Positions 306 to 62,318 of a stretch of DNA of 64,000 nt are shown here, piece by piece. This DNA comes from a virus. Each line of letters begins with the position of its first letter. Position 1 is the first letter of the stretch. Position numbers and translations under genes: made by a program. The notes under the pieces were generated by a model. It had not been told where the DNA came from and ran no database searches. It saw nothing but the letters and a program-made list of their open reading frames with translations. Where the stretch lies: the IMG/VR virus record IMGVR_UViG_3300005080_000005. One strand, given 5' to 3'.

Positions 306-1202
306 GTGACTTGTACAGAGTGTTCTAAAGATAAAGAGTTATTTCCAGATGGTTATTTTGTTAGCACAAAAGGACGTTTAAAGGCAGGACAGAAGCCTTG
401 TGGTTGTGCGTTTAATCCAAAATGGGAAGGTTGTCAGTACTTGATTTTAGCTAGTAGGGTAGGAGAAAAGAAAGGTTTTATTGTTCATGGTTTTGTTGAA
501 GAATTTAAAAATCAAAAGACAAAATTAAACCTTGAGTGTTTAAAAGATGGGTACAAATGGACTGCAAGTATTACTAAGGTTATTAACAACGGTAGTGGTT
601 GTCCTAAATGTGGTATTGAACAAAAGAAAACACCAGAACCTGTTGCATTACAAAAATGTATTGACATCTGTAGAGAAATGGACTATGATGTTGTTGGTTT
701 TGTTGGTGGTTATAGAACTGCCCGCAAAACTATATTTGAGTATATTTGCAAAATACATGGAAAACAAAATGTTTATTATAACGACTTTGTAAACCACGAG
801 GCACGTTGTAGTGGTTGTTGGAAAGATAGACAAAAAGAGCTAGGGAGTCTTTATGGATATTATCCTGAAAGAAAAGATGAACAAGATTTTCTTTATGTTC
901 TAAATTTCAACAATAAGTTTATCAAGGTTGGAAGATCTTTCGATGTAAATGAAAGGATTAGAAATTTGAGGAAACCTTCAGAATCTGGAATCAAAAAGAT
1001 TTATAAACTAAGAATCTTTACAGCAACCCATCAAGAAATTTATGATTATGAACAAGAGTTACACACTGAACTACGTTCTCGAAACTTTCAACACTATGTT
1101 GATTGGAGTACTGAGTGTTTCGAGAATGATTCTTTGTTTATTCTGAATAAACTACTTGACAGCAGATTAGTTACAGGGAATTTCGAAGAAATTTCTTATT
1201 GA
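306..1202 (+). CDS. Zn-ribbon repeats + T5orf172 (GIY-YIG-like) domain protein, putative homing endonuclease, paralog 1 (N-terminally interrupted)
   Basis: Paralogous to 17900-18898 and 29548-30550 (same CxxC/CGC triple-repeat N-half and FLYVLNFNGKFIKVGRS T5orf172-like C-half). The reading frame runs back to ATG 159 but holds an in-frame TAG at 234-236 where paralog 2 has TGG (Trp). Confidence 0.6.
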   Translation: MTCTECSKDKELFPDGYFVSTKGRLKAGQKPCGCAFNPKWEGCQYLILASRVGEKKGFIVHGFVEEFKNQKTKLNLECLKDGYKWTASITKVINNGSGCPKCGIEQKKTPEPVALQKCIDICREMDYDVVGFVGGYRTARKTIFEYICKIHGKQNVYYNDFVNHEARCSGCWKDRQKELGSLYGYYPERKDEQDFLYVLNFNNKFIKVGRSFDVNERIRNLRKPSESGIKKIYKLRIFTATHQEIYDYEQELHTELRSRNFQHYVDWSTECFENDSLFILNKLLDSRLVTGNFEEISY

Positions 1203-17899: not shown

Positions 17900-18898
17900 T
17901 CATTGTTTTATTTCTTCTAGACCACAACTATCCAGAAATTTATTGAGAACGAACAGTGAATCATTTTCAAAACACTCTGTTGACCAATCTACATAATGTT
18001 GGAAGTTTCTTTCTCGTAACTCGTTATGTAGTTCTTGTTCAAAATCATAAATCTCTTGATGTGTTGCTGTGAATATTCTGAGTTTGTGAATCTTTTTGAT
18101 TTTAGATATAGACTTTAAAGCATCAACTCTTTTATCAACAAGAAAAGACCTTCCAACTTTAATGAATTTACCATTGAAGTTCAAGATGTACAAGAAATCA
18201 GTTTCATCTTTTCTTTCGGGATAGTATCCATTACCATTTCCATCTTCCCTTAATCTTCTAATGGTTTCATCTTTAGCACAACCCCGACAACGTGTTCCTT
18301 TGTTTACAAAATTACCATATCTAACATTCTGTTTTCCATGAATTTTGCAGATGTACTCAAAACGAGAAGTGTTGTTTTTATATCCACCAACAAAACCAAC
18401 AACATCATAGCTCATTTCTTTACAAATATCAATACATTTTTGCAATGCTTCTTGTTCTGTTGGCCTATATACACCAGCACACTTTGAACAACCTTTGCCA
18501 CTATTAATAATATCATTAATACTTGCAGTCCACTTATGCCCATCTTTCAAACATTCAAGGTTTAGTTTGGTGTTTTGATTTTTAAATCCTTCAACAAAAC
18601 CATGAACAATAAACCTGTCTTTTGATGCTCTACGGGCTAATATTAAATATTGAAAGTCCCTCCATCTTACATTTTTCCCACAACCACAAGGTTTGATTTC
18701 TTTAACCAAACTACTTTTGACACTAACAAAATATCCATCATGGAATAATTCAGGATCTTTGGAACATTCCGTACAGGTAACTTTAAAAGTGGTATGCTTC
18801 GATTTCTCAATAATACCAATAACTTCTAGTTTTCCATCTTTACTTTTCCAACCTATGAAATCTTCAGCTTTTTGTTGTTTCTTTTTATTTTCAGTCAT
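17900..18898 (-). CDS. Zn-ribbon repeats + T5orf172 (GIY-YIG-like) putative homing endonuclease, paralog 2 (intact)
   Basis: 332 aa; three CxxC...CGC/CxKC zinc-ribbon-like repeats then FLYILNFNGKFIKVGRSF T5orf172/MUG113-like motif. Confidence 0.7.
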   Translation of the reverse strand: MTENKKKQQKAEDFIGWKSKDGKLEVIGIIEKSKHTTFKVTCTECSKDPELFHDGYFVSVKSSLVKEIKPCGCGKNVRWRDFQYLILARRASKDRFIVHGFVEGFKNQNTKLNLECLKDGHKWTASINDIINSGKGCSKCAGVYRPTEQEALQKCIDICKEMSYDVVGFVGGYKNNTSRFEYICKIHGKQNVRYGNFVNKGTRCRGCAKDETIRRLREDGNGNGYYPERKDETDFLYILNFNGKFIKVGRSFLVDKRVDALKSISKIKKIHKLRIFTATHQEIYDFEQELHNELRERNFQHYVDWSTECFENDSLFVLNKFLDSCGLEEIKQ

Positions 18899-18986
18899 TT
18901 AGACTCCAATCCAATACTATCAATATACATATGTAATATACCCATGCTAAAATAGCACAAGGAGCAAACTGCTCCTTGTGCTATAT

Positions 18987-19865
18987 TTAATTTGTAATCT
19001 TTGATTTTATTTCTTTGATAATCTTAGAAGAAAGTTGTTCTCTGGTATTGTTCAGTGAATATTGTATATCCATATCATTACAGAGGCTTCTAAACTCTTC
19101 TGTACTAAATCCTGAGTCAACAACAAAGTAAGCTGGTGTAAAATCTCCATTGATATCATATTCAATATTGTCAATTTTAAAAATATATTCTCTTGCATCC
19201 TCATTAAACAACACTACAATATCATCTGTCCAAGAATAAATACGAATCAAACTGTCATCGTACTCCTTAACACCAATCGTGCATGTTTCTTTATTTACGA
19301 CAGCTTCACTGGATTCTTGCTCCCCGAAAAACATGTTAATCAGCTCGTCTTTTGAAAGGTTCTCTGCAACTTCTCGTGTTATAGGTTCAGATTCTTCTTC
19401 TAGTTGAACGACAGTGATTTCACCACCAGAATAAACATCCCGTTTCATTGCAATTTTGACTGCATCTTCTGCTGATGCACCAGCATCCATGGCTGCAAGG
19501 GCGAATACACTACCTGAACCAATTGATGCTTGAACATCGTGCCCAAGATTAAGAGCGACATTACCATCATACATCAAAACTTGTTTGTCTGGAGTCAAAA
19601 CCAACGCCGTAAACTCCTCGTCGTCCTGTAGAACAGGCGGAATCAAATCAACAAGATCTCCAACTTCTTGATTAACAATTGTGTAATCTGTGTGTTTCTG
19701 CAACCATTGGGCAAAGGTGCTGATAGACCGTGCTCGTCCTGCCCCACCCATCAAGTGGTTGTTAACCCAAAAGACTTTTACCATATCATCTTTGATTACG
19801 GTGCTACCAAGTGAACAACGACCGTCACCTACCATAATACCATCTTTTACTGCGATTGTAGTCAA
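18987..19865 (-). CDS. HslV/proteasome-beta-like Ntn peptidase domain with ~130-aa C-terminal extension
   Basis: MTTIAVKDGIMVGDGRCSLGSTVIK (Thr2 nucleophile) and ASIGSGSVFALAA match HslV TTIVSV..GDGQ.TLG and GSGG.YALAAA. Confidence 0.55.
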   Translation of the reverse strand: MTTIAVKDGIMVGDGRCSLGSTVIKDDMVKVFWVNNHLMGGAGRARSISTFAQWLQKHTDYTIVNQEVGDLVDLIPPVLQDDEEFTALVLTPDKQVLMYDGNVALNLGHDVQASIGSGSVFALAAMDAGASAEDAVKIAMKRDVYSGGEITVVQLEEESEPITREVAENLSKDELINMFFGEQESSEAVVNKETCTIGVKEYDDSLIRIYSWTDDIVVLFNEDAREYIFKIDNIEYDINGDFTPAYFVVDSGFSTEEFRSLCNDMDIQYSLNNTREQLSSKIIKEIKSKITN

Positions 19866-19904
19866 ATTAATTTCTCCTTCTGTTATTAAATAGTAATTTA
19901 CAAC

Positions 19905-20354
19905 TTAAACATTCCTAATATAACTACGGATCTCTCCTTCGTTTTTGTATAGGAAATTCAACCAAGAAACAGTGTTATAGTCTACTTGTACCGGATTATC
20001 AGAGAACAAATATAAACGAATAATTTTCTGCAATGCAACAAGACAATTGTAGATTTTCATTAACCTCTTCATCTCTGATACTTGCCACGGCTCCAAACAA
20101 TGCAGATGTTTTAGTGTATCAATATCCTTGTGAAGTTCACGGTAATCTTTGAAGATAGATTCAAACTGTTGTTTAAGAACTTCTTCAGAAGTATATCCAA
20201 ATTTCATGAAATTAAACTTTTTTCGGTTCTTGTAGACATAGTTGCTCTCAGCTACCGCATAAAGTCGTTCCATGTGTTCACGGATAACTTCAGGGTATAC
20301 CAATTGTGTGTCCATAAGTGCATTTATCTTGGTACAACTCATACTTGTTTGCAT
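19905..20354 (-). CDS. hypothetical protein
   Basis: ORF. Confidence 0.5.
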   Translation of the reverse strand: MQTSMSCTKINALMDTQLVYPEVIREHMERLYAVAESNYVYKNRKKFNFMKFGYTSEEVLKQQFESIFKDYRELHKDIDTLKHLHCLEPWQVSEMKRLMKIYNCLVALQKIIRLYLFSDNPVQVDYNTVSWLNFLYKNEGEIRSYIRNV

Positions 20355-20588: not shown

Positions 20589-20888
20589 TTACCGACCAAC
20601 AATCAATTCTTGCAGACCCTCTTCGCTGTTCTCTCCAATTTCAAGAACGTAGTATTGACAGTTATTATAACTAATCTTGTCACCTATATTATACTCACCT
20701 TCAACCATGATGTCAATACACTCAGTAAACAATTTGCAAACCTCATTAAAGTCTTTTGTATATCCAAGAACCTTATCTGGTTTCTGGACACTTGTAATTA
20801 TATCAGATATTGTATTTTGTGCAAGTACGAAACCTTCATCTGATTGACAGAGAAAAATGTAATCGTTGGGATTATATTGTTTTGTCAT
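20589..20888 (-). CDS. hypothetical protein
   Basis: ORF. Confidence 0.5.
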   Translation of the reverse strand: MTKQYNPNDYIFLCQSDEGFVLAQNTISDIITSVQKPDKVLGYTKDFNEVCKLFTECIDIMVEGEYNIGDKISYNNCQYYVLEIGENSEEGLQELIVGR

Positions 20889-21874: not shown

Positions 21875-22450
21875 TTAAATCTTACCTTCAAACTCATAAA
21901 CAAACCAAGCACTTTCGTTCTTTGGATTATTTTCAACAAGTTTACACAACGTTTGATATGCTGTCAATACTTCTTGTTCATATTGTTTTCGGTCAAAACT
22001 ATAAAACATTTTATCTAGAATTTTTTCATAACCATCATGTTTATCCTTGATTCTCCACTCTACACTATTCTTACGCCATTTGACATGAACACCATCCCAT
22101 ATACTGGCGCACACAGATACTCCACAAGAACAAGTAAACGGATAAAAACAAGTGAGGTTATAATGCCAAGATTTGGTAATTGGAATATATTCTATTCCGG
22201 TATCTTTGTAACTTTCACCACACCAATCAGCATAGTTTGATACGACACTTTTATTTACAAATTCACGAATAAAAGCATATAAATCCGTGTAGTGCTTAAT
22301 CTCTTTTCCGTTAATTTCAACTTTACACTTAATATCGTATTTGGTTACATTATTATCTGTTTCTTCGTAGTTGTCAATCTCTTCGTTATAGGTTTCTTCA
22401 GGTTGTCCCCAAGAACGTTCTTCCACTTTAATTTTGATGGTATCTTTCAT
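21875..22450 (-). CDS. hypothetical protein (Cys-rich)
   Basis: ORF 191 aa. Confidence 0.5.
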   Translation of the reverse strand: MKDTIKIKVEERSWGQPEETYNEEIDNYEETDNNVTKYDIKCKVEINGKEIKHYTDLYAFIREFVNKSVVSNYADWCGESYKDTGIEYIPITKSWHYNLTCFYPFTCSCGVSVCASIWDGVHVKWRKNSVEWRIKDKHDGYEKILDKMFYSFDRKQYEQEVLTAYQTLCKLVENNPKNESAWFVYEFEGKI

Positions 22451-22523: not shown

Positions 22524-23510
22524 TTAATCTTTATACACTAAATTCGCAATCTCTTTTAGTTTTGGGAGGTGCACTTTAAAGAAATAAATATCTTTGTTAA
22601 TTTCATCTACATCAAACCCAGAATTGTTCAAATTATAAATACTTGTTGGAAATCCTTCAAAAACCAACATTGTAGCTAGGTCATAAGCAGATGCTGCCTC
22701 TTCCTCTGTTTCATATCTAAAGATCCGTCCTCCATAGAGATTTCCCCCGGAACTGATGGTAAATCTTGCTGACCACTTATCTGCTGCTTTATCATAGCTA
22801 ACCCCTTTATACTTTGATGTTTTAGAAGTCTTTGTTTTTAACCTGTTCCTTGCTTGAATGTGCGGGCTGGCCCATCTACAATTTTCCTTACTGTAACTTA
22901 GGTTGCAATCTACTCTGTCCACCGTATAACCCTTACATGGGCATTTACCTACATCTTGATAAAATCTAAGGAAATTATCTTTCCACTCCTCCGGCATTGT
23001 AATACCGACAGCTCCATAATTTTTATAATCAGAGTTGTTTATATCATAGCACCGTTCTTTCATCTTTCTCCAAGAATTATACTCAGGCGTGTTTTTCATT
23101 CCGTGATAATTACTTTTAAAAGGTATTACCTCATTCTTCAAACAACCACAAGATTTTGTATGCCCAAAGTTCAGTCTTCCTATGGTTGTTATCGTACTTT
23201 TGCCACAATCACACTCACAGTACCATAAGGCATCCCCATTTTTTGATTTTTCTCCAGTCGGCATTACTGCTATTAGTTTTGTAAACCTCTCACCACTAAT
23301 GTCTTTTGTCTTACGTTTTCTTGGGATACATCCGCAAGACCTTGGCCCTCTTTTGTTTGTTACTTCATTTTTGGTTTTAAATGTTGTGTTGCCACAATCA
23401 CATTGTAATTCATATATTTTTCTGTTATACTTGTCTACTTTATCTGTTATTGCTATAACAGTCAGTTTACCGTGTTTTGTGTTAATAAAATTATCCAACT
23501 TCGCCTCCAA
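22524..23510 (-). CDS. HNH homing endonuclease with AP2 DNA-binding domain
   Basis: Multiple CxC/CGC clusters; C-terminal YKGVSYDKAADKWSARF...ETEEEAASAYD is an AP2-type domain. Confidence 0.7.
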   Translation of the reverse strand: MEAKLDNFINTKHGKLTVIAITDKVDKYNRKIYELQCDCGNTTFKTKNEVTNKRGPRSCGCIPRKRKTKDISGERFTKLIAVMPTGEKSKNGDALWYCECDCGKSTITTIGRLNFGHTKSCGCLKNEVIPFKSNYHGMKNTPEYNSWRKMKERCYDINNSDYKNYGAVGITMPEEWKDNFLRFYQDVGKCPCKGYTVDRVDCNLSYSKENCRWASPHIQARNRLKTKTSKTSKYKGVSYDKAADKWSARFTISSGGNLYGGRIFRYETEEEAASAYDLATMLVFEGFPTSIYNLNNSGFDVDEINKDIYFFKVHLPKLKEIANLVYKD

Positions 23511-23637: not shown

Positions 23638-24474
23638 TTATTTTACTCTACCATTTCGGCGCTCATATTTCTCAAATGCCATACCCCAAGCTTTTGCTTC
23701 TTGAGAACGTACACAGTATTCCCATTTATCAAAATCAATAATACTCATATCAATGTTACCGTACTTTGAAACTTCGAGTAACAGCTCTAGTCCACTATAA
23801 CTTTTAAGATCTTTTTGGTCAATATCCCCAGTGATCACTGTGATAGAATTTACACCTTGCCGTCCTACAAGAGATTTAGCTACCTCTGGGGCCAAATCTT
23901 CAGCTTCATCCACAATTACAAAGGTGTTGTCCCAAGAACGACCCTTCACTTGTTCAAGTGAGAGTAGTTCAATCTTCCCATTTTCAACATAAGCTTCGTA
24001 GTGCCCGATACCCAGTCGCTTCTTAAATACATCTGCAATTGGAGCCACCCAACCTTCGAGTTTTTCGTTCTTAGTTCCTTTATAGAACCCTACAGATTTA
24101 GCCTTACCTTCTGCGGGACGAGCTACTACAATTTTGTCAATCTTTTTGGCAAGCAACATATCACAAGCAATAACAGACGGGATGTATGTTTTACTTGACC
24201 CCCAAACACCAGTGGCAATAACCACGGCATGGTTGTAAATAGCGTCAATGTACTCTGCTTGACGGTCATTCATCGGACGAAGAGGTGTTGTGTCCCTATT
24301 ACTATCTGTTTTCGCTTTAAAAGTGTTAGGAGTATTGTTGCGTCCTTTCATCTTTTTATTCACCTCTTTATGTTGTTGAAAACTGGAATCTTGCTCGTGT
24401 GCGTCAGACCAATAATCTTCTCTCACTATAACACCTCCTTGGTGTTGATTAAAATGGAATTGTGTGTTTAACAC
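23638..24474 (-). CDS. phoH: PhoH-like ATPase
   Basis: Walker A GVWGSSKT; IVDEAEDLAPE Walker B; overall PhoH architecture. Confidence 0.8.
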   Translation of the reverse strand: MLNTQFHFNQHQGGVIVREDYWSDAHEQDSSFQQHKEVNKKMKGRNNTPNTFKAKTDSNRDTTPLRPMNDRQAEYIDAIYNHAVVIATGVWGSSKTYIPSVIACDMLLAKKIDKIVVARPAEGKAKSVGFYKGTKNEKLEGWVAPIADVFKKRLGIGHYEAYVENGKIELLSLEQVKGRSWDNTFVIVDEAEDLAPEVAKSLVGRQGVNSITVITGDIDQKDLKSYSGLELLLEVSKYGNIDMSIIDFDKWEYCVRSQEAKAWGMAFEKYERRNGRVK

Positions 24475-28435: not shown

Positions 28436-29521
28436 TTAAAACTCTAATTCATCATCCCCAAGGTCATCTTTAGTTGCATTCAAAACATAATTGACAATAG
28501 TAGCTTCTTGTGCTGCTACTTGATGGGAGTCAATGTCAATCCAGTCATTCAACCAAGGAATTGGGTGGGATTCGGGAACTACATTGTCATTATGAACATT
28601 CAACACTTTGTACAATGGGGTTGCAGACCAAACAACCCACTCATCCAATAGTTGCTTGTTCAAGCCCAGAATACTACGCCCTTCTGAGAACAAGTATTCG
28701 TTCCAGTTTAGCTCTCGCTGTACAACCTTGTCAAGATATTCTTTTGTCCAAGGTTTAATATCTTTAAATGTTTGCTTCCATTCAGGGTCGTTTTGTAGGG
28801 TCTCAATAACAATTTTATCAAGTTGGGTATGATATTGTTCATCGATCATAATTTTCTGAACTAATTTGGCAACACCGATAAACAAATCTTGTTGTGCTAG
28901 TGCAAATGTGCAAGCAAACGATGCCATGAAACTAATACCTTCAAGAGCATACAGGGCTACTAATGTTTTTGCAATAGTTTCTTTGACGATTGGGTCATTT
29001 TTATCTACAAGACCAAGATTATACTTAGCACCAAGTTGTTCAAGTTCTTTGAACACGATACCAAAATCATAGCCACGTTCAGTAACTTCATTTCTCTCTA
29101 CTTCAGCAAACAATACTTCTGGATTCTTGAAACACTGTCGACCAATTTCGGAATATGTTAAACTGTGAAGCACTTCATTTTGCGATACATAAGAAGCTGC
29201 TGCCCAATATTCACTATTTGATACAAATGGTGCAAGAAGCGGTGCAATAGAACGAGAAGCAATGCTATCAAGCTCCCACTGATAGGCCAGAGTTTTAACC
29301 ATTACTTCGTATTGATTCTTTGGGCAATTCTCGAAATCGAAGCGGGATTGTTGAAGGTCAACCTCATCTTCACTCCAGTCAACAGACTTCAGTTTCTTGT
29401 AAAGTTTAAAGATCTGTGGGTATGTTGTGTTGATGCTATCGTGAAGTGCTGGTTGCTGCCCAAGGAATAGAGGGTAGTGCCCTTCGTGTCGTTGAGTATT
29501 TTCATAATTAAAAACTGCCAT
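28436..29521 (-). CDS. nrdB: ribonucleotide reductase small subunit
   Basis: 361 aa; ferritin-like di-iron RNR beta architecture. Confidence 0.85.
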   Translation of the reverse strand: MAVFNYENTQRHEGHYPLFLGQQPALHDSINTTYPQIFKLYKKLKSVDWSEDEVDLQQSRFDFENCPKNQYEVMVKTLAYQWELDSIASRSIAPLLAPFVSNSEYWAAASYVSQNEVLHSLTYSEIGRQCFKNPEVLFAEVERNEVTERGYDFGIVFKELEQLGAKYNLGLVDKNDPIVKETIAKTLVALYALEGISFMASFACTFALAQQDLFIGVAKLVQKIMIDEQYHTQLDKIVIETLQNDPEWKQTFKDIKPWTKEYLDKVVQRELNWNEYLFSEGRSILGLNKQLLDEWVVWSATPLYKVLNVHNDNVVPESHPIPWLNDWIDIDSHQVAAQEATIVNYVLNATKDDLGDDELEF

Positions 29522-29547: not shown

Positions 29548-30550
29548 TTATTTTACTTCTTCTAAATCACAGTTGTCAAGAAGTTTGTTTAGAGTGTATT
29601 GACAGTCATTATCAAAACACTCTGTACTCCAATCTACATAATGTTGGAAATTTCTTTCTCGTAGTTCAGTATGTAGCTCTTGTTCGTAGTCATAAATCTC
29701 TTGATGTGTTGCTGTAAAAGGTCCTCAATTTATAGATCTTTTTAATTTTAGATAAAGACCTTAACTTCTTAATCCTATCGTCAACAATAAAAGATCTTCC
29801 AACTTTGATGAATTTACCATTGAAGTCTAAGACATAAAGAAAATCAATTTCATCTTTTCTTTCGGGATAGTATCCGTTGCCGTTTCCGTTATCTCTTAGT
29901 AATTCAACTTGCCTATCTTTCCAACAACCACCACAACGTGTCCCATTGTTTACAAAATTGTGATAGCTGACACCCTGTTTTCCGTGAATCTTACAATTGT
30001 ATTCAAAATGAGAACGGTTATTTTTATATCCACCAACAAAGCCAACAGCATCGTAATCCATTTCTTTGCAGATATCAATACATTTTTGCAGGGCTTCTTG
30101 TTCTGTTGGTCTGGCATTTCCAGAACACTTAGGACAACATCTGCCGTTATTGATTACATTATCAATACTTGCAGTCCACTTATAACTGTCTTTTAAACAT
30201 TCTAGGTTTAGTTTTGTATATGCCCCATGAAACTCTTCTGCAAAACCATGAACAACAAATCCTTTCTCTTCTCCTGCTCTACGAGCAAGAATCAGATATT
30301 GCCAATCTTCCCATTCGTACTTAGAACAACCGCAGGGTTTCCGCCCATTCTTCAGGTTACTTTTTGTACTAACAAAATAACCATCTGGAAACAGTTCAGG
30401 ATCTTTAGAACATTCAGTACAAGTTACTTTAAATAATGAAATTCCCCATTTATCCTTACCTGCAATTCCTACAACCCTTAATCTGCCATTATTAAACGTC
30501 TCACCTATAAAATCTTCAGCTTTTTGTTGTTTCTTCTTATTTTCAGCCAC
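29548..30550 (-). pseudogene. Zn-ribbon + T5orf172 homing-endonuclease paralog 3, frameshifted near 29705-29715
   Basis: ORF track 29690-30550 ends ...KLRTFYSNTSRDL. The conserved C-terminus (FTATHQEIYDYEQELHTELRERNFQHYVDWSTECF...) continues in another frame to TAA at 29548. The region has one extra base relative to paralog 2. Confidence 0.6.
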
Positions 30551-30619
30551 TTAATTCTACCTCCTTTTACTATGAACTTGCATTATACTACCTTAATTTG
30601 AAAATGTCAATACAAATCC

Positions 30620-30661: not shown

Positions 30662-32920
30662 TTACAAACTGCAACCACCTGACGCACAACCAGATTCTTG
30701 CGAAGTCAGTTGCTCAACTTCATCGGATTTGGATTTTGTATTGCAGTAATAATGAGTCTTGAGTCCCATCTTACACATATATAGCAAGTTCGTCAAGTCT
30801 TCCTTCGTACCGATCTTACCATCTTGATATTTAGAGGTATCGAAATAAAAGTCAGCACTAATAGCTTGCCCACAGAACTTCTGAACAATTGCATACATGT
30901 CTACCAAGTCCTTAAATGGGACATCCCAACACTTCTCGTAACTGTATCGAGTAATCAAATTATCATAATCTGGTACAAACACTGGAATTTTGTTTATATC
31001 CGAAGATTTAATAATCAGTTCACTACGAATTGGATAAAGACCGTTAGTTGTGTTTGATGCTAGAGAACTACTTTCTCCGGGCATGTGTGCCTCAAGGACA
31101 CTATTGCGCAACCCGCCTTGTTCAATAATTTCTTGTCGTAACTGTTCCCAGTCAAATACCAACGAACTATCAACAACATCATCTACATTTTTATTGTATG
31201 TGTCAATAGGCAACCAACCTTTAGGATATTTAGTTTTACCAATCCATTCTGCATTACCCTTTTCTTTTGCAAGACGAAGAGAAGCTTTGTGCATATAGTA
31301 GCTGTGCATTTCTGCTAGTTCGTGAATAAGACGTTTACCTTTATTGCTTGTATAACCTGCATTCTGTGATGCAAGATAGTTTGCTAGGTTAACAATACCA
31401 ACACCAATACTTCTGCGAGCTTTTGCTGTTACTTCCATCTGGGGGAATGGGTATTCCATCAAGTCAATAGTGTTGTCGATTAGTAAGGTTGTATAATAAG
31501 CAACATCTTCGTACTCTTCTTGTGTAACACGTCCTGCTACAATTGCACCAATAAAACACAATGCTACTTCTCCTGCATCACCATCTGTTCCATACAAATC
31601 TACAATACTCTTAAATCCTTTTGTAGGTAGCGTGATTTCTTGGCATAAATTTGAGCTGTAGATTGGCTCTTTAAATGGAGTATGTCGATTAATCTCGTCA
31701 ATAAATGTCTTGTATGTTCGACCAGATTCACGCCAGTTCTTTTGAATATCAATTGCCAATTCACGAGCATTGACATACTTCTTTTCTTTAATATCTGATT
31801 TGTCGTATTTGTCATACAGTTCAACAAAACCTTCATAATCTGAACTATAAAACTTATCATACAAATCTTGAGCGTAGTATGGACTAATTAACATCCACTG
31901 CTCGTTCTTAGCAACTTTCTGAATAAACAGTTTGTTCATGCTGTTACTATAATCCAACCCACGAATCTGTTTTTGTGTCGGTGTAGTTGGATGTTTTAGA
32001 CGAATCAAATCTTCAATTTCAGGATCTAGAATATTAATGTGCATTGTTGCACTACCGCCACGTACTGCTTGCTTTGTAGATTTGACAGCACTTTCGTAGT
32101 ACCGAAGGTAAGGTAGTTTACCATAGTGTACAATGTCGCCACCACGAACAGGGTCTTTTACTGAACGAGTATGCATGTAACCACCAATCCCTGCTGATGC
32201 GCAAGTCATCATATAGGCAATGTGGCTACCTACTTCAATACTCTCTGCTGTATCGTGCGTAGTAAACAAACAGCAACTTGCATAACCTTTAAACTTAGTT
32301 CTCATACCAGAAAGAGTTGGTGTTGGAACATTAATCTTCAAATCTGACAGATAGGTGTACAGTTTGATTACATCTTCAACTCTCCGCTCTTGTGGTTGAT
32401 TCTGCATAGCCGCCAGAGCAATACCCACATACATAAACTGAGGTGATTCAAACAGTTGTCCAGTATGCTTGTTTTTAAGCATGTATTTATCACACATTTG
32501 ACGAAGGCTTGAGTATTGGTATCCGAAATCTTTATTGTGGATAACAAAAGAATCAATTTCGTCAAGTTCTTCTTCAACGTACTCCATGTCAATCCACTTT
32601 TCTGATTCTACCATTTTTGTATAGAACTCAAAAAGAGAGGGTGGTTCTACAAAATCACCAAACACTTCTTTATAGATATCCCCAACAAGGAGTCGTGCTG
32701 CAACATCTGCATGTTGGTATGTTGCCTTTTCAAGACAGGTGTCAATAAGCGCCTTGTGGATATCTTTGGTAGAGCACATATCGGACAGTTTCTTAGTTGC
32801 ACTCATTACAATTTCTGACCAAGATACTTTAGATTCACTGGCCCACTCAGCCCACTTATTCAGTTTGTTTGGGTCGAACTCAACAACTTCACCATTACGT
32901 TTGATTACACTTTTAATCAA
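30662..32920 (-). CDS. nrdA: ribonucleotide reductase large subunit
   Basis: 752 aa; N-terminal ATP-cone, catalytic NLCQEITLP motif, C-terminal CxxC tail. Confidence 0.9.
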   Translation of the reverse strand: MIKSVIKRNGEVVEFDPNKLNKWAEWASESKVSWSEIVMSATKKLSDMCSTKDIHKALIDTCLEKATYQHADVAARLLVGDIYKEVFGDFVEPPSLFEFYTKMVESEKWIDMEYVEEELDEIDSFVIHNKDFGYQYSSLRQMCDKYMLKNKHTGQLFESPQFMYVGIALAAMQNQPQERRVEDVIKLYTYLSDLKINVPTPTLSGMRTKFKGYASCCLFTTHDTAESIEVGSHIAYMMTCASAGIGGYMHTRSVKDPVRGGDIVHYGKLPYLRYYESAVKSTKQAVRGGSATMHINILDPEIEDLIRLKHPTTPTQKQIRGLDYSNSMNKLFIQKVAKNEQWMLISPYYAQDLYDKFYSSDYEGFVELYDKYDKSDIKEKKYVNARELAIDIQKNWRESGRTYKTFIDEINRHTPFKEPIYSSNLCQEITLPTKGFKSIVDLYGTDGDAGEVALCFIGAIVAGRVTQEEYEDVAYYTTLLIDNTIDLMEYPFPQMEVTAKARRSIGVGIVNLANYLASQNAGYTSNKGKRLIHELAEMHSYYMHKASLRLAKEKGNAEWIGKTKYPKGWLPIDTYNKNVDDVVDSSLVFDWEQLRQEIIEQGGLRNSVLEAHMPGESSSLASNTTNGLYPIRSELIIKSSDINKIPVFVPDYDNLITRYSYEKCWDVPFKDLVDMYAIVQKFCGQAISADFYFDTSKYQDGKIGTKEDLTNLLYMCKMGLKTHYYCNTKSKSDEVEQLTSQESGCASGGCSL

Positions 32921-50809: not shown

Positions 50810-51151
50810 TCAGCTTGTTTCTGTCGTGTTTCCTCTGGAACATTGTGAATCGACGATCACTGTGAAAACAGTATATCCGTATTTTTCAGCAAGGTCAAGG
50901 TAAGGTTTCATTTCCCACTCTGTTGTGAATGTATTAGAAACAACAATATCATAACCAAACTTCATTTGTCTTTCTGTCTCAGATTGACACCAACCATGAG
51001 CCTGTTTTAATTTAGAAGGTTCAAACAAATATTTACCGTCTCTCATGAAGTACATATCTGCTTCAAGATTGCAAAACCGTCCAAAACATTCTTGGACAAA
51101 TGTTGACTTTCCTGCACCGCTCACACCTCTGACCAGAATACACGTTTTCAT
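50810..51151 (-). CDS. polynucleotide 5'-kinase (P-loop; T4 Pnk kinase-domain-like), apparent 3' frameshift
   Basis: GVSGAGKST Walker A; C-terminus truncated. An alternative frame from ~50855 reads SIHNVPEETRQKQAERLYKSIKLI, ending at TAA 50779 next to the following gene start. Confidence 0.55.
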   Translation of the reverse strand: MKTCILVRGVSGAGKSTFVQECFGRFCNLEADMYFMRDGKYLFEPSKLKQAHGWCQSETERQMKFGYDIVVSNTFTTEWEMKPYLDLAEKYGYTVFTVIVDSQCSRGNTTETS

Positions 51152-52053
51152 TCCTGTTCTCCAAAATATTTTTCAATAAAAGCCCTACGTTGTTGATCAT
51201 TATAAGACTTCCATTGGTCTTTGTCAACAGTTTTTACAATAAAATCTGTAATCCCGTAAAATTCTTCATCAATTCGTTGTTTAAATTTCTCAGGATTATC
51301 AAACATATCATCAACTTTAGCTTGTCCAAGTCGCATAATTGCCTTCTTAGATAGGTAATGATTTGATTTCAATTTACACAGTGTTTTACCAGTTTCATGA
51401 TCAATAATCATAAAACCTTCATGTTTGCAAGATTTAGATTCTTCTAAAATATCTGAGAATTTTCCTACTGTCAATCTTGGGCGATAAAACCCATCAGCAT
51501 CTGCAATAACATTTAGTGTGTACTCTGACATCATTTTACCAGAGCTGTGTTTTCTTACTCCGATTAGATACGCCCCGAACTCTTCTTCTATAATGTGCGG
51601 ATCATCTGGATGACAGATCTCAAACAAATACGTCCTTCCTTCTTCAAATTGCTCATCTTTAAACATTTGGTTTTCAATAACTTCTTTTGCCATTTTAGCA
51701 AATTTAGAATCCAATGAGCCAGTTGTTGAATAAATTGGCTCTCCTTTATAAACAGAAACAGCACACATAAAACCATTAATTTTACGTGGTGCAATTACAA
51801 TCTTATCTCGTGAGACTTTTGTATTATTTTCATAAAGATTAAAAACTTTTGTAAAAGGCCAAACAATAATGTTATCTTCAGAATCAACTACCATACCACG
51901 ACAATCCAACAGTCGTTTGTCTCTATTCCATAGATTGTTATAAAAGACTTTCTTAGAATATTTAAGAATAGAAAGTCCTGCAAACTCTCCTGAAGTATAG
52001 GTCTTTTTCTTTACAAGACCTTGTTCTACCAAATCTTCGACATTAAATTTCAT
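51148..52053 (-). CDS. RNA ligase (Rnl-family ATP-dependent polynucleotide ligase)
   Basis: Motif I KINGFM (KxNG), motif IV EGFMII, motif V CKLK; ATGA overlap with kinase gene. Confidence 0.6.
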   Translation of the reverse strand: MKFNVEDLVEQGLVKKKTYTSGEFAGLSILKYSKKVFYNNLWNRDKRLLDCRGMVVDSEDNIIVWPFTKVFNLYENNTKVSRDKIVIAPRKINGFMCAVSVYKGEPIYSTTGSLDSKFAKMAKEVIENQMFKDEQFEEGRTYLFEICHPDDPHIIEEEFGAYLIGVRKHSSGKMMSEYTLNVIADADGFYRPRLTVGKFSDILEESKSCKHEGFMIIDHETGKTLCKLKSNHYLSKKAIMRLGQAKVDDMFDNPEKFKQRIDEEFYGITDFIVKTVDKDQWKSYNDQQRRAFIEKYFGEQE

Positions 52054-62054: not shown

Positions 62055-62137
62055 GTTGGATTCCGTTAGTGGCGATACGACTGGTTTTGTAATCCAGCAG
62101 GGAAACCTCATCGTGAGTTCGAGTCTCACATCCAACA
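62055..62137 (+). tRNA. tRNA-like gene, type II (long variable arm), non-canonical anticodon arm (anticodon UGU if 7-nt loop)
   Basis: Acceptor GTTGGAT/ATCCAAC, D-stem CGT/ACG with GG loop, T-arm GTGAG-TTCGAGT-CTCAC, 15-nt variable arm with AGG/CCT hairpin; anticodon stem only 4 bp with a U-U closing pair; no encoded CCA. Confidence 0.4.
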
Positions 62138-62159
62138 CTAAGTATTTTAAAGATTTACA

Positions 62160-62234
62160 GGGCCTATGGCAGTCTGCGAATGCAGCCAGCTCATAACTGG
62201 TTCAAGGATGGTTGGATTCCATCTAGGCCCACCA
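62160..62234 (+). tRNA. tRNA-Met (CAU)
   Basis: Acceptor GGGCCTA/TAGGCCC, anticodon arm GCCAG-CTCATAA-CTGGT, T-arm GATGG-TTGGATT-CCATC, discriminator A + encoded CCA. Confidence 0.7.
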
Positions 62235-62243
62235 AATTAACTT

Positions 62244-62318
62244 GCAGGTATGATGTAATGGATAGCATATCTTTCTTCTAAAAAGATTGTCAGCGTTCAA
62301 ATCGCTGTACCTGTGCCA
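62244..62318 (+). tRNA. tRNA-Arg (UCU)
   Basis: Acceptor GCAGGTA/TACCTGT, D-arm ATGT-AATGGATA-GCAT, anticodon arm TCTTT-CTTCTAA-AAAGA, T-arm CAGCG-TTCAAAT-CGCTG, G + encoded CCA. Confidence 0.8.

Follow-up and report, generated by a model that had tools for sequence, protein, structure and literature searches.

The viral record IMGVR_UViG_3300005080_000005, whose 64,000 nucleotides form the window analysed here, encodes on its minus strand a 292-residue protein that an initial annotation had read as an HslV/proteasome-like threonine peptidase fused to an unknown C-terminal domain. We propose that this protein is a catalytically competent, non-structural phage peptidase made of two exchangeable modules and directed by its tail, and we consider this the probable reading. 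The extra C-terminal region is indeed present and the gene is phage-borne; the window DNA is 80-86% identical in patches to phiA009 and to the Plateaulakevirus phages 4L372XY, 2L372D and 4L372D, and its source is, judged by this identity, an Aeromonas myovirus related to them. Phage HslV-like proteins are already known (PHROG 1040 and GenBank annotations), as are phage proteasome homologues (PMC8665760). HslV-like proteins are found in approximately 165 phage records and ClpP-like proteins in many hundreds, and both are widely annotated. The literature searched on the function of phage HslV and ClpP reported no function and contained annotation mentions, the classification of Fuchs et al. and ICP1 transcriptomics only; nor did it describe the tail module, its helix-extended-loop-helix (HeH) end, the sharing of the tail with ClpP-like peptidases in one slot or the recombination of two cassettes. 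The gene and the parts of its product are:

18987..19865, minus strand: complete peptidase coding sequence, 292 residues plus stop, TTG start (open reading frame (ORF) list, PF00227, PHROG 1040)
19401..19865, minus strand: catalytic N-terminal nucleophile (Ntn) domain, residues 1-155 (alignments to beta5 and HslV; family conservation)
19323..19400, minus strand: linker helix, residues 156-181, EESEPITREVAENLSKDELINMFFG, nearly invariant in the family alignment
19266..19322, minus strand: acidic linker, residues 182-200, predicted disordered, predicted local distance difference test (pLDDT) <50 in both AlphaFold models
18990..19265, minus strand: compact C-terminal domain, residues 201-292, predicted as four beta strands (~205-237) followed by three helices

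An identical protein, P0001, was found on a 118-kb metagenomic contig, and there are more than 240 homologues at E<=1e-3, at least 120 of them near-full-length among the matches listed. The translation agrees with the motifs quoted previously (MTTIAVKDG..GDG..LG and GSGS..ALAA), and profile and structure comparisons uphold the assignment of the N-terminal part to the Ntn threonine peptidases of the proteasome/HslV superfamily. Pfam PF00227 (Proteasome) is matched at 26.3 bits against a gathering cut-off of 22.4 (E=6.9e-6), with the match spanning residues 4-59 only, and is the sole Pfam family above threshold in the whole protein. PHROG 1040 ('peptidase HslV family') is matched at E=6.6e-47, residues 1-291 aligning with profile positions 14-270 of 277. 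The best solved-structure matches are Thermotoga HslV (1m4y, E=7e-4) and proteasome beta5 chains, with residues 7-158 aligned. The domain ends near residue 155, so the extent of ~165 residues given earlier was slightly long. Aligned to beta5 and HslV, the following residues occupy the active-site positions of the beta subunit:

T2: beta position Thr1
D14: beta position Asp17
K30: beta position Lys33
G43: beta position Gly47
S117 (in GSGS): beta position Ser129
D143: beta position Asp166
S146 (in RDVYSGG): beta position Ser169

Across 28 aligned homologues K30, G43, S117, D143 and S146 are invariant and T2 is nearly so; D14 is Asp in most of them and Glu in P0062, P0110 and P0115. The active-site pattern is kept in phAPEC8 gp175 and VnaP_091, the Ntn domains of which are ~33-38% identical to that of the window protein. 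The hallmarks for which the protein had been likened to HslV, namely the motifs and Thr2, are there, as is an M-T-T-I start without a propeptide, but orthology to HslV is not. The HslV equivalogs TIGR03692 and NF003964 score only 24.4 and 25.1 bits against cut-offs of 157.75 and 137, the best NCBIfam match is archaeal proteasome beta (34 bits against a cut-off of 224, E=1.7e-8, residues 4-158), the RDxxSGG motif of the 20S-beta type is present, and the helix H2 region (residues 60-85) is shortened, with a PP pair and no predicted helix (secondary structure at low confidence). Because of these four features the protein is best placed, on sequence, as a member of the proteasome-beta/HslV superfamily and not as an HslV orthologue.

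Comparison with characterised relatives gives the same picture. With HslV (ClpQ, the HslUV peptidase, MEROPS T1B) the protein has in common the Ntn fold family, the lack of a propeptide, the M-T-T-I start, equivalents of Asp17, Lys33, the Gly and the GSG motif, and the PHROG 1040 label. It differs in its scores of 24-25 bits against cut-offs of 137-158, in a catalytic domain that is ~20 residues shorter (H2 region), in its 20S-type RDxxSGG motif and in having no adjoining hslU; HslV is a single domain of ~175 residues, whereas the window protein has 292 (a 155-residue catalytic domain and a 137-residue tail). The 20S beta subunits (archaeal beta, eukaryotic beta5) provide the best NCBIfam match and all seven aligned active-site residues, including Asp166 and Ser169, but at 34 bits against 224, and the window protein has no propeptide and no alpha-subunit partner gene and is encoded by a phage. 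Fuchs, Alva and Lupas (2021) described the phage-associated proteasome homologues PPH, RPC, AAH and CPH; PPH has ~140 residues and no helix H2, and RPC is related to PPH with an uncharacterised C-terminal domain and was reported from Proteobacteria only, not from phages (PMC8665760). Compared by description only, the window protein resembles PPH and RPC as a compact, phage-borne, group-I-like homologue with an apparently reduced H2 and an extra C-terminal domain, but a tail common to ClpP-like proteins is not described in that work (PMC8665760).

The tail is found in the same genomic slot behind a second, unrelated peptidase fold. P0125 (333 residues) starts with a ClpP-like domain (PF00574) in which Ser, His and Asp motifs are readable, continues with EPEPLTREVAENLSKEELINMMFG and ends in a tail that shares 87% identity with the tail on the HslV-like protein of Aeromonas phage 2L372D. 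On its 1.7-kb contig, genes like gp204 and gp205 of 4L372XY lie upstream, and the ClpP-like gene hence occupies the exact slot of the HslV-like gene. Because this contig is short and a second one is frameshifted, we examined finished genomes of cultured phages, where the pattern holds. The slot is anchored across phage genera by the following gene, which lies just 5' of the protease in phAPEC8, 4L372XY, PWH3a-P1, KLEP7, ICP1 and VnaP:

23638..24474, minus strand: PhoH-like ATPase (Pfam PF02562, E=1.8e-43), synteny anchor of the protease slot

The Vibrio natriegens phage VnaP has the order PhoH, HNH endonuclease, 65-residue ORF, 155-residue ORF, HslV-like protein with tail (VnaP_091, 277 residues), small ORFs and ligase. 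The Vibrio natriegens phage PWH3a-P1 has PhoH, 64-residue ORF, 153-residue ORF, ClpP-like protein with tail (VPIG_00091, 321 residues), small ORFs and ligase. The two phages share 58-75% identity in the flanking proteins and 45% over ~130 residues in the tails of VnaP_091 and VPIG_00091 (E=1e-24); there is no relationship between their catalytic domains. ICP1 gp211 (326 residues) and gp112 of Pseudaeromonas phage KLEP7 (383 residues) are also ClpP-like, with homologous tails and a PhoH-proximal slot, and in phAPEC8 gp175 (230 residues) the linker helix and acidic tail are kept next to PhoH. ICP1 gp211, VPIG_00091 and KLEP7 gp112 (phrog_1827, 'ATP-dependent protease subunit') thus resemble the window peptidase in the order PhoH, small ORFs, protease and in a tail with linker helix, acidic linker, beta region and HeH, but differ in having a Ser-His-Asp ClpP/crotonase fold instead of an Ntn threonine peptidase; they likely share its biological role. 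Shuffle tests of the tails gave the following z-scores:

window (HslV-like) against P0125 (ClpP-like): 36
VnaP (HslV-like) against PWH3a-P1 (ClpP-like): 36
window against VnaP (both HslV-like): ~9

The tails group by phage lineage and not by peptidase type. As tail similarity tracks lineage in this way, the peptidase has been exchanged on at least two occasions, or the two forms have existed side by side for a long time, with recombination between them. The two types are mostly found as alternatives: ICP1 is absent among the 165 phage records with an HslV-like match, and P0125 is matched in the Aeromonas phages over its tail only.

Both the conserved catalytic residues and the ClpP-like swap, which fits proteolysis and not HslU binding, bear on the activity of the protein. 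The initial annotation had allowed for a decoy that titrates HslU and for an amidohydrolase; these two observations disfavour both, and ligase-type (connectase-like) chemistry is likewise disfavoured. A catalytically irrelevant decoy for host HslU is hardly credible: the HslV-like M-T-T-I N-terminus and the failure to find a phage HslU in the window would suit it, but strict conservation of catalytic residues is unexpected where Ntn domains share only ~33% identity, a ClpP-like domain cannot titrate HslU and yet sits in the same slot with the same tail, and similarity to HslV orthologue models is very low. We also regard as very unlikely a non-hydrolytic or non-peptidase Ntn enzyme, be it a connectase-like ligase or transpeptidase or a small-molecule amidohydrolase. 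Proteasome homologues do include the ligase connectase and many uncharacterised branches (PMC8665760), and the present family is very divergent from characterised members. However, Proteasome is the only Pfam family above threshold, all seven active-beta residues are kept, RDxxSGG included, and sister phages have a ClpP-like serine peptidase in its place, which points to hydrolysis of peptide bonds as the chemistry common to both.

Some Plateaulakevirus genomes carry a second proteasome-like paralogue of 183 residues, starting M-T-C-I-I-A (4L372XY gp205, 3492-4043 of contig L002; also 135-686 of the ClpP-type contig L003), directly 5' of the tailed peptidase, and it is also found 5' of the ClpP-type version. 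It matches PHROG 1040 at E=1e-25 and HslV weakly, and may be a partner subunit or an independent enzyme; it was sought in the window and is absent there. The PADLOC models of anti-phage defence proteins gave no match at E<=0.1 for the window protein, the gp205 paralogue, ICP1 gp211 or the ORF upstream of the peptidase gene. VnaP encodes, ~4 kb 3' of its tailed peptidase, a separate ClpP-like protein of 198 residues (VnaP_103, L008 10869-11465) with a hydrophobic, signal-peptide-like N-terminus and no tail. A conserved two-gene cassette of the peptidase and the upstream ORF of ~150 residues was considered and rejected; BLASTP found no homology of this ORF between phages, and its PHROG families differ or are missing.

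The C-terminal part had been described as without recognisable motif. This is right for Pfam, where the sole hint is a sub-threshold EAD7 match and where SAP, LEM and Rho_N were not matched (up to E=1 with the full-length protein and up to E=0.1 with the isolated tail), but it overlooks a conserved linker helix, an acidic linker, a confidently folding beta+HeH domain and homologues. The linker helix, EPITREVAENLSKDELINMFFG (SKDELI...FG), recurs in phAPEC8 gp175 (LENFSKEELINLLKFG) and in three proteins of the ClpP-like type, P0125, PWH3a-P1 VPIG_00091 and ICP1 gp211. Residues 182-200 vary in length and sequence across the family alignment. Residues 202-290 are modelled at pLDDT >90 (second AlphaFold run), and in this predicted structure the last two helices (~254-289) form an HeH motif of the SAP/LEM/Rho-N type that can be superposed on known HeH domains. 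The whole tail has a net charge of -18 and an isoelectric point of 4.2, with the last 50 residues at net -1, and all related tails are acidic (-15 to -26). This acidity would argue against strong DNA binding, and protein binding seems at least as likely as DNA binding. The tail likewise departs from the known HeH domains (SAP, LEM, the Rho N-terminal helical subdomain and the C-terminal region of T4 endonuclease VII) in the missing Pfam matches, in being acidic where typical DNA-binding SAP domains are not, and in a preceding four-strand sheet that is foreign to them.

Searching residues 160-292 against 1.84 billion representative proteins gave six matches: two HslV-like proteins, the ClpP-like P0125, two short fragments and a repetitive protein of 2,526 residues. 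The last of these (P0126, E=2.5e-5) was dropped as a tail homologue, being judged a compositional artefact. A profile of the tail alignment run against a set of 5.8 billion proteins found only 3 proteins, little beyond P0127, P0128 and P0129, and a fold search of BFVD returned family members only. The tail thus appears to be dedicated to these peptidases, as far as sequence searches reach. Foldseek against the PDB gave nothing significant; the top match, the TbiB1 recognition element for ribosomally synthesised and post-translationally modified peptides (RiPP; E=0.11, probability 0.33), may be a lead toward a peptide-binding fold, on which we do not rely.

Within the Aeromonas phages, the two parts of the protein vary separately. 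Identity to the window protein is 97% in the Ntn domain and 34% in the tail for P0105, 97% and 44% for P0022, and 70% and 100% for P0009. The DNA of L011, the contig that encodes P0009, locates the changes. It is 97-100% identical to the window at 20170-19871, through the upstream ORF, 56-81% identical at 19870-19377, which is exactly the Ntn-coding part, and 99-100% identical at 19376-18977, the rest of the linker and the tail. Identity is mostly 95-100% at 18976-17877 (hairpin and endonuclease), with two dips to 86-91%. Within the protease gene, the sole DNA shared by the ClpP-type contig L003 and the window is 19314-19401 (82%), which encodes the linker helix. Catalytic domain and tail therefore recombine independently, and the linker behaves as the joint between two cassettes, given that linker-helix DNA alone is shared by the two protease genes. 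Covariation of the upstream ORF with the tail was tried and rejected; the ORF holds 93% identity (to 4L372XY gp204) while the tail drops to 33-48% in other Aeromonas-phage homologues.

The gene directly 3' of the peptidase is likely a homing endonuclease:

17900..18898, minus strand: endonuclease of 332 residues with three CapR domains, a treble-clef zinc finger and T5orf172 (Pfam, PHROG 681)

In the contigs examined it always follows the window-type tail (window, L009, L011 and L012), and it is absent beside other tail variants (L013, L014, L015 and 4L372XY). The endonuclease may drive co-conversion of the adjoining tail. The window seems to hold three paralogous genes of this CapR/T5orf172 type, the other two at 306-1202 (plus strand) and 29690-30550 (minus strand), the latter between nrdA (30662-32920) and nrdB (28436-29521). 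The endonuclease-bearing contig L009 also matches the window by BLASTN at 184-611 (75%) and 30122-30553 (70%). An HNH endonuclease (PHROG 374; 22524-23510, minus strand) lies between PhoH and a 191-residue ORF (21875-22450). This site 3' of PhoH is empty in L012 and L015, holds an AP2-domain ORF of 324 residues in L013 and L014 and an HNH gene in VnaP, and looks like a hotspot for differing homing endonucleases.

Several observations weigh against our proposal. The link of the window-type tail to the CapR/T5orf172 endonuclease means that homing-driven co-conversion may explain part of the mosaicism without selection on tail function. The shortened H2 region means that the quaternary structure could differ from that of HslV, and the N-terminal half of the full-length AlphaFold model (28 close homologues) has a pLDDT of ~30, so that the N-terminal fold and ring interfaces are read from sequence. 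Two of the Aeromonas-lineage contigs on which a ClpP-like domain precedes the tail are short metagenomic assemblies, one of them frameshifted. The ClpP-like domains, finally, score best against 'head maturation protease, ClpP-related' models, below cut-off.

The gene is part of an early or middle nucleotide-metabolism block and lies outside the structural module. In PHROG and Pfam searches the peptidase is surrounded by nrdA, nrdB, nrdD, DNA ligase, an exonuclease, a DNA polymerase exonuclease subunit, PhoH and several endonucleases, and ten large ORFs of the window compared with the PHROGs gave nucleotide-metabolism, ligase, exonuclease and endonuclease genes. This setting bears on a role in head or virion maturation, with the acidic tail as a scaffold-like or targeting segment, for which fusions of ClpP/S49-type prohead proteases to scaffolds are a precedent. 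Acidic C-terminal extensions are typical for scaffold-like segments, and the ClpP-like domain of ICP1 gp211 matches the NCBIfam model 'head maturation protease, ClpP-related' (67.6 bits) and several head-protease PHROGs. The bit score is, however, below the cut-off of 120, and the best PHROG for gp211 is phrog_1827 ('ATP-dependent protease', category 'other'). The prohead proteases with scaffold (NF045540, NF045542) are alike in joining a peptidase to an acidic C-terminal extension, and the ClpP-like relatives weakly resemble their models, but scores are under the cut-offs, and the window gene is outside the head module, flanked by PhoH and small early-type ORFs and close to nrdA/B/D and ligase. 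In ICP1 a different protein, gp125, is the predicted capsid protease and is encoded in the late-expressed capsid cluster gp122-126, and gp211 lies at the end of the gp176-gp211 range. In 4L372XY, gp107 adjoins the portal gene and matches head-maturation protease PHROGs, and a scaffold-sized ORF, a decoration protein and the major head protein follow 3' of it. Because these phages have head-maturation protease candidates of their own, we favour a non-structural role; the window peptidase is probably not a head protease, and a morphogenetic function is unlikely.

As the initial annotation had stated, no cognate HslU was found. PHROG and Pfam searches of the larger ORFs and a Walker-A scan detected no HslU- or ClpX-like ATPase within the 64-kb window, and there is no hslVU operon, the ORFs adjoining the peptidase being endonucleases or without family matches. 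The Walker-A regular expression matched only a kinase-like AAA_33 ORF of 120 residues; it missed PhoH, whose P-loop may be atypical, and as an ATPase test it is incomplete and is complemented by the PHROG and Pfam scans. That P-loop ORF lies at 50813-51172 (minus strand), just upstream of an RNA ligase-like gene (51148-52053). The 90 kb read of 4L372XY contain a single annotated AAA-type ATPase, encoded at a great distance from the protease: gp053 (L007 22733-23884), a protein of 383 residues of AAA_5 (MoxR/dynein) type and not of HslU/ClpX type, which has no homologue in the window.

It is possible, if doubtful, that the phage peptidase ring docks on an unfoldase of the host, HslU for the Ntn type and ClpX or ClpA for the ClpP type, with the tail as an in-cis adaptor that feeds the ATP-dependent machine. 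This would be a refinement of the tail-directed peptidase and not a strict alternative to it. Neither HslV nor ClpP degrades folded proteins without a partner ATPase, and both HslUV and ClpXP are encoded by Aeromonas hosts. The failure to find an AAA+ unfoldase in the window fits such recruitment, as does the distant MoxR-type gene of 4L372XY. Against it, the very low HslV-orthologue scores and the shortened H2 suggest that the HslU docking surface may not be kept, the ClpP-like domains are nearest to phage head-protease-type ClpP relatives, which act without ClpX, and a free swap of two peptidase folds would demand two host partners giving one outcome.

Four further features around the gene point to how it may be expressed:

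20688..20716, minus strand: sigma-70 promoter-like site TTGACA-17-TATAAT, 12/12 consensus matches in a promoter scan (consensus match only)
19905..20354, minus strand: ORF of 149 residues directly 5' of the peptidase gene, orthologue of 4L372XY gp204 (93% identity)
19874..19879, minus strand: Shine-Dalgarno sequence AAGGAG, 8 nt 5' of the TTG start, read directly from the sequence
18952..18984, no strand assigned: hairpin with a 15-bp stem, starting 3 nt past the peptidase stop codon (terminator scan)

The promoter-like site lies 5' of a 67-residue ORF, the 149-residue ORF and the peptidase gene, which makes a three-gene, sigma-70-driven unit plausible. The 149-residue ORF, for which Pfam, PHROG and PADLOC gave no match, is probably co-transcribed with the peptidase gene. 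The hairpin, of which the T-run is weak on the minus strand (TATTTT), would probably be the transcription terminator that closes the unit. The promoter-like site falls within a 99-residue ORF (20589-20888), which may be mis-called or shorter, or the promoter may be internal to it. Elsewhere in the window, three tRNA genes (Thr-TGT, Met-CAT and Arg-TCT) are clustered at 62055-62318 on the plus strand.

For the tail-directed peptidase as a whole, we envisage the following. The first module (residues 1-155) has no propeptide; host methionine aminopeptidase would expose the Thr2 nucleophile, as in HslV, and the domain would, by analogy, assemble into a ring-shaped, self-compartmentalising peptidase. 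The second module (residues 156-292), with its conserved helix, flexible acidic tether and small beta+HeH domain, would probably lie on the outer face of the ring and give partner or substrate recognition or localisation. Expression would be early or middle, probably from a sigma-70-type promoter shared with the two small ORFs. The role would amount to generic chambered proteolysis plus the tail and would need no HslV-specific property, because the same tail is found in the same position on an unrelated ClpP-like serine peptidase. The acidic tether and HeH, the early or middle context and the fast turnover of both modules are compatible with a host target, which could be a defence or nucleoid-associated protein.

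A bolder version, which we put forward only tentatively, is that the tail is a portable targeting device that draws a specific protein of the host into any chambered peptidase bearing this tail. A candidate target would be a defence or nucleoid-associated DNA-binding protein, with the acidic, DNA-mimic-like tether and the HeH capturing it. Warhead (two Ntn variants or the ClpP-like domain) and tail variant would then be swapped repeatedly at the linker as part of an arms race, to which the hosts would contribute resistant targets or ways of sensing or inhibiting the peptidase. If true, this would be phage-encoded targeted protein degradation independent of a dedicated unfoldase. The interchange of two unrelated peptidase folds in one conserved slot, with the tail retained, already makes one testable system of two 'hypothetical protease' annotations, in which the tail would be the specificity element and the peptidase a generic warhead. 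Given that the family takes in gp211 of ICP1, a model phage of Vibrio cholerae that is amenable to genetics, the proposal is readily testable. The locus also shows that phage proteins can evolve by non-homologous domain displacement, with a conserved linker serving as the site of recombination. Should a defence or nucleoid protein of the host prove to be the target, the family would represent a new kind of phage counter-measure, a natural form of modular targeted proteolysis.

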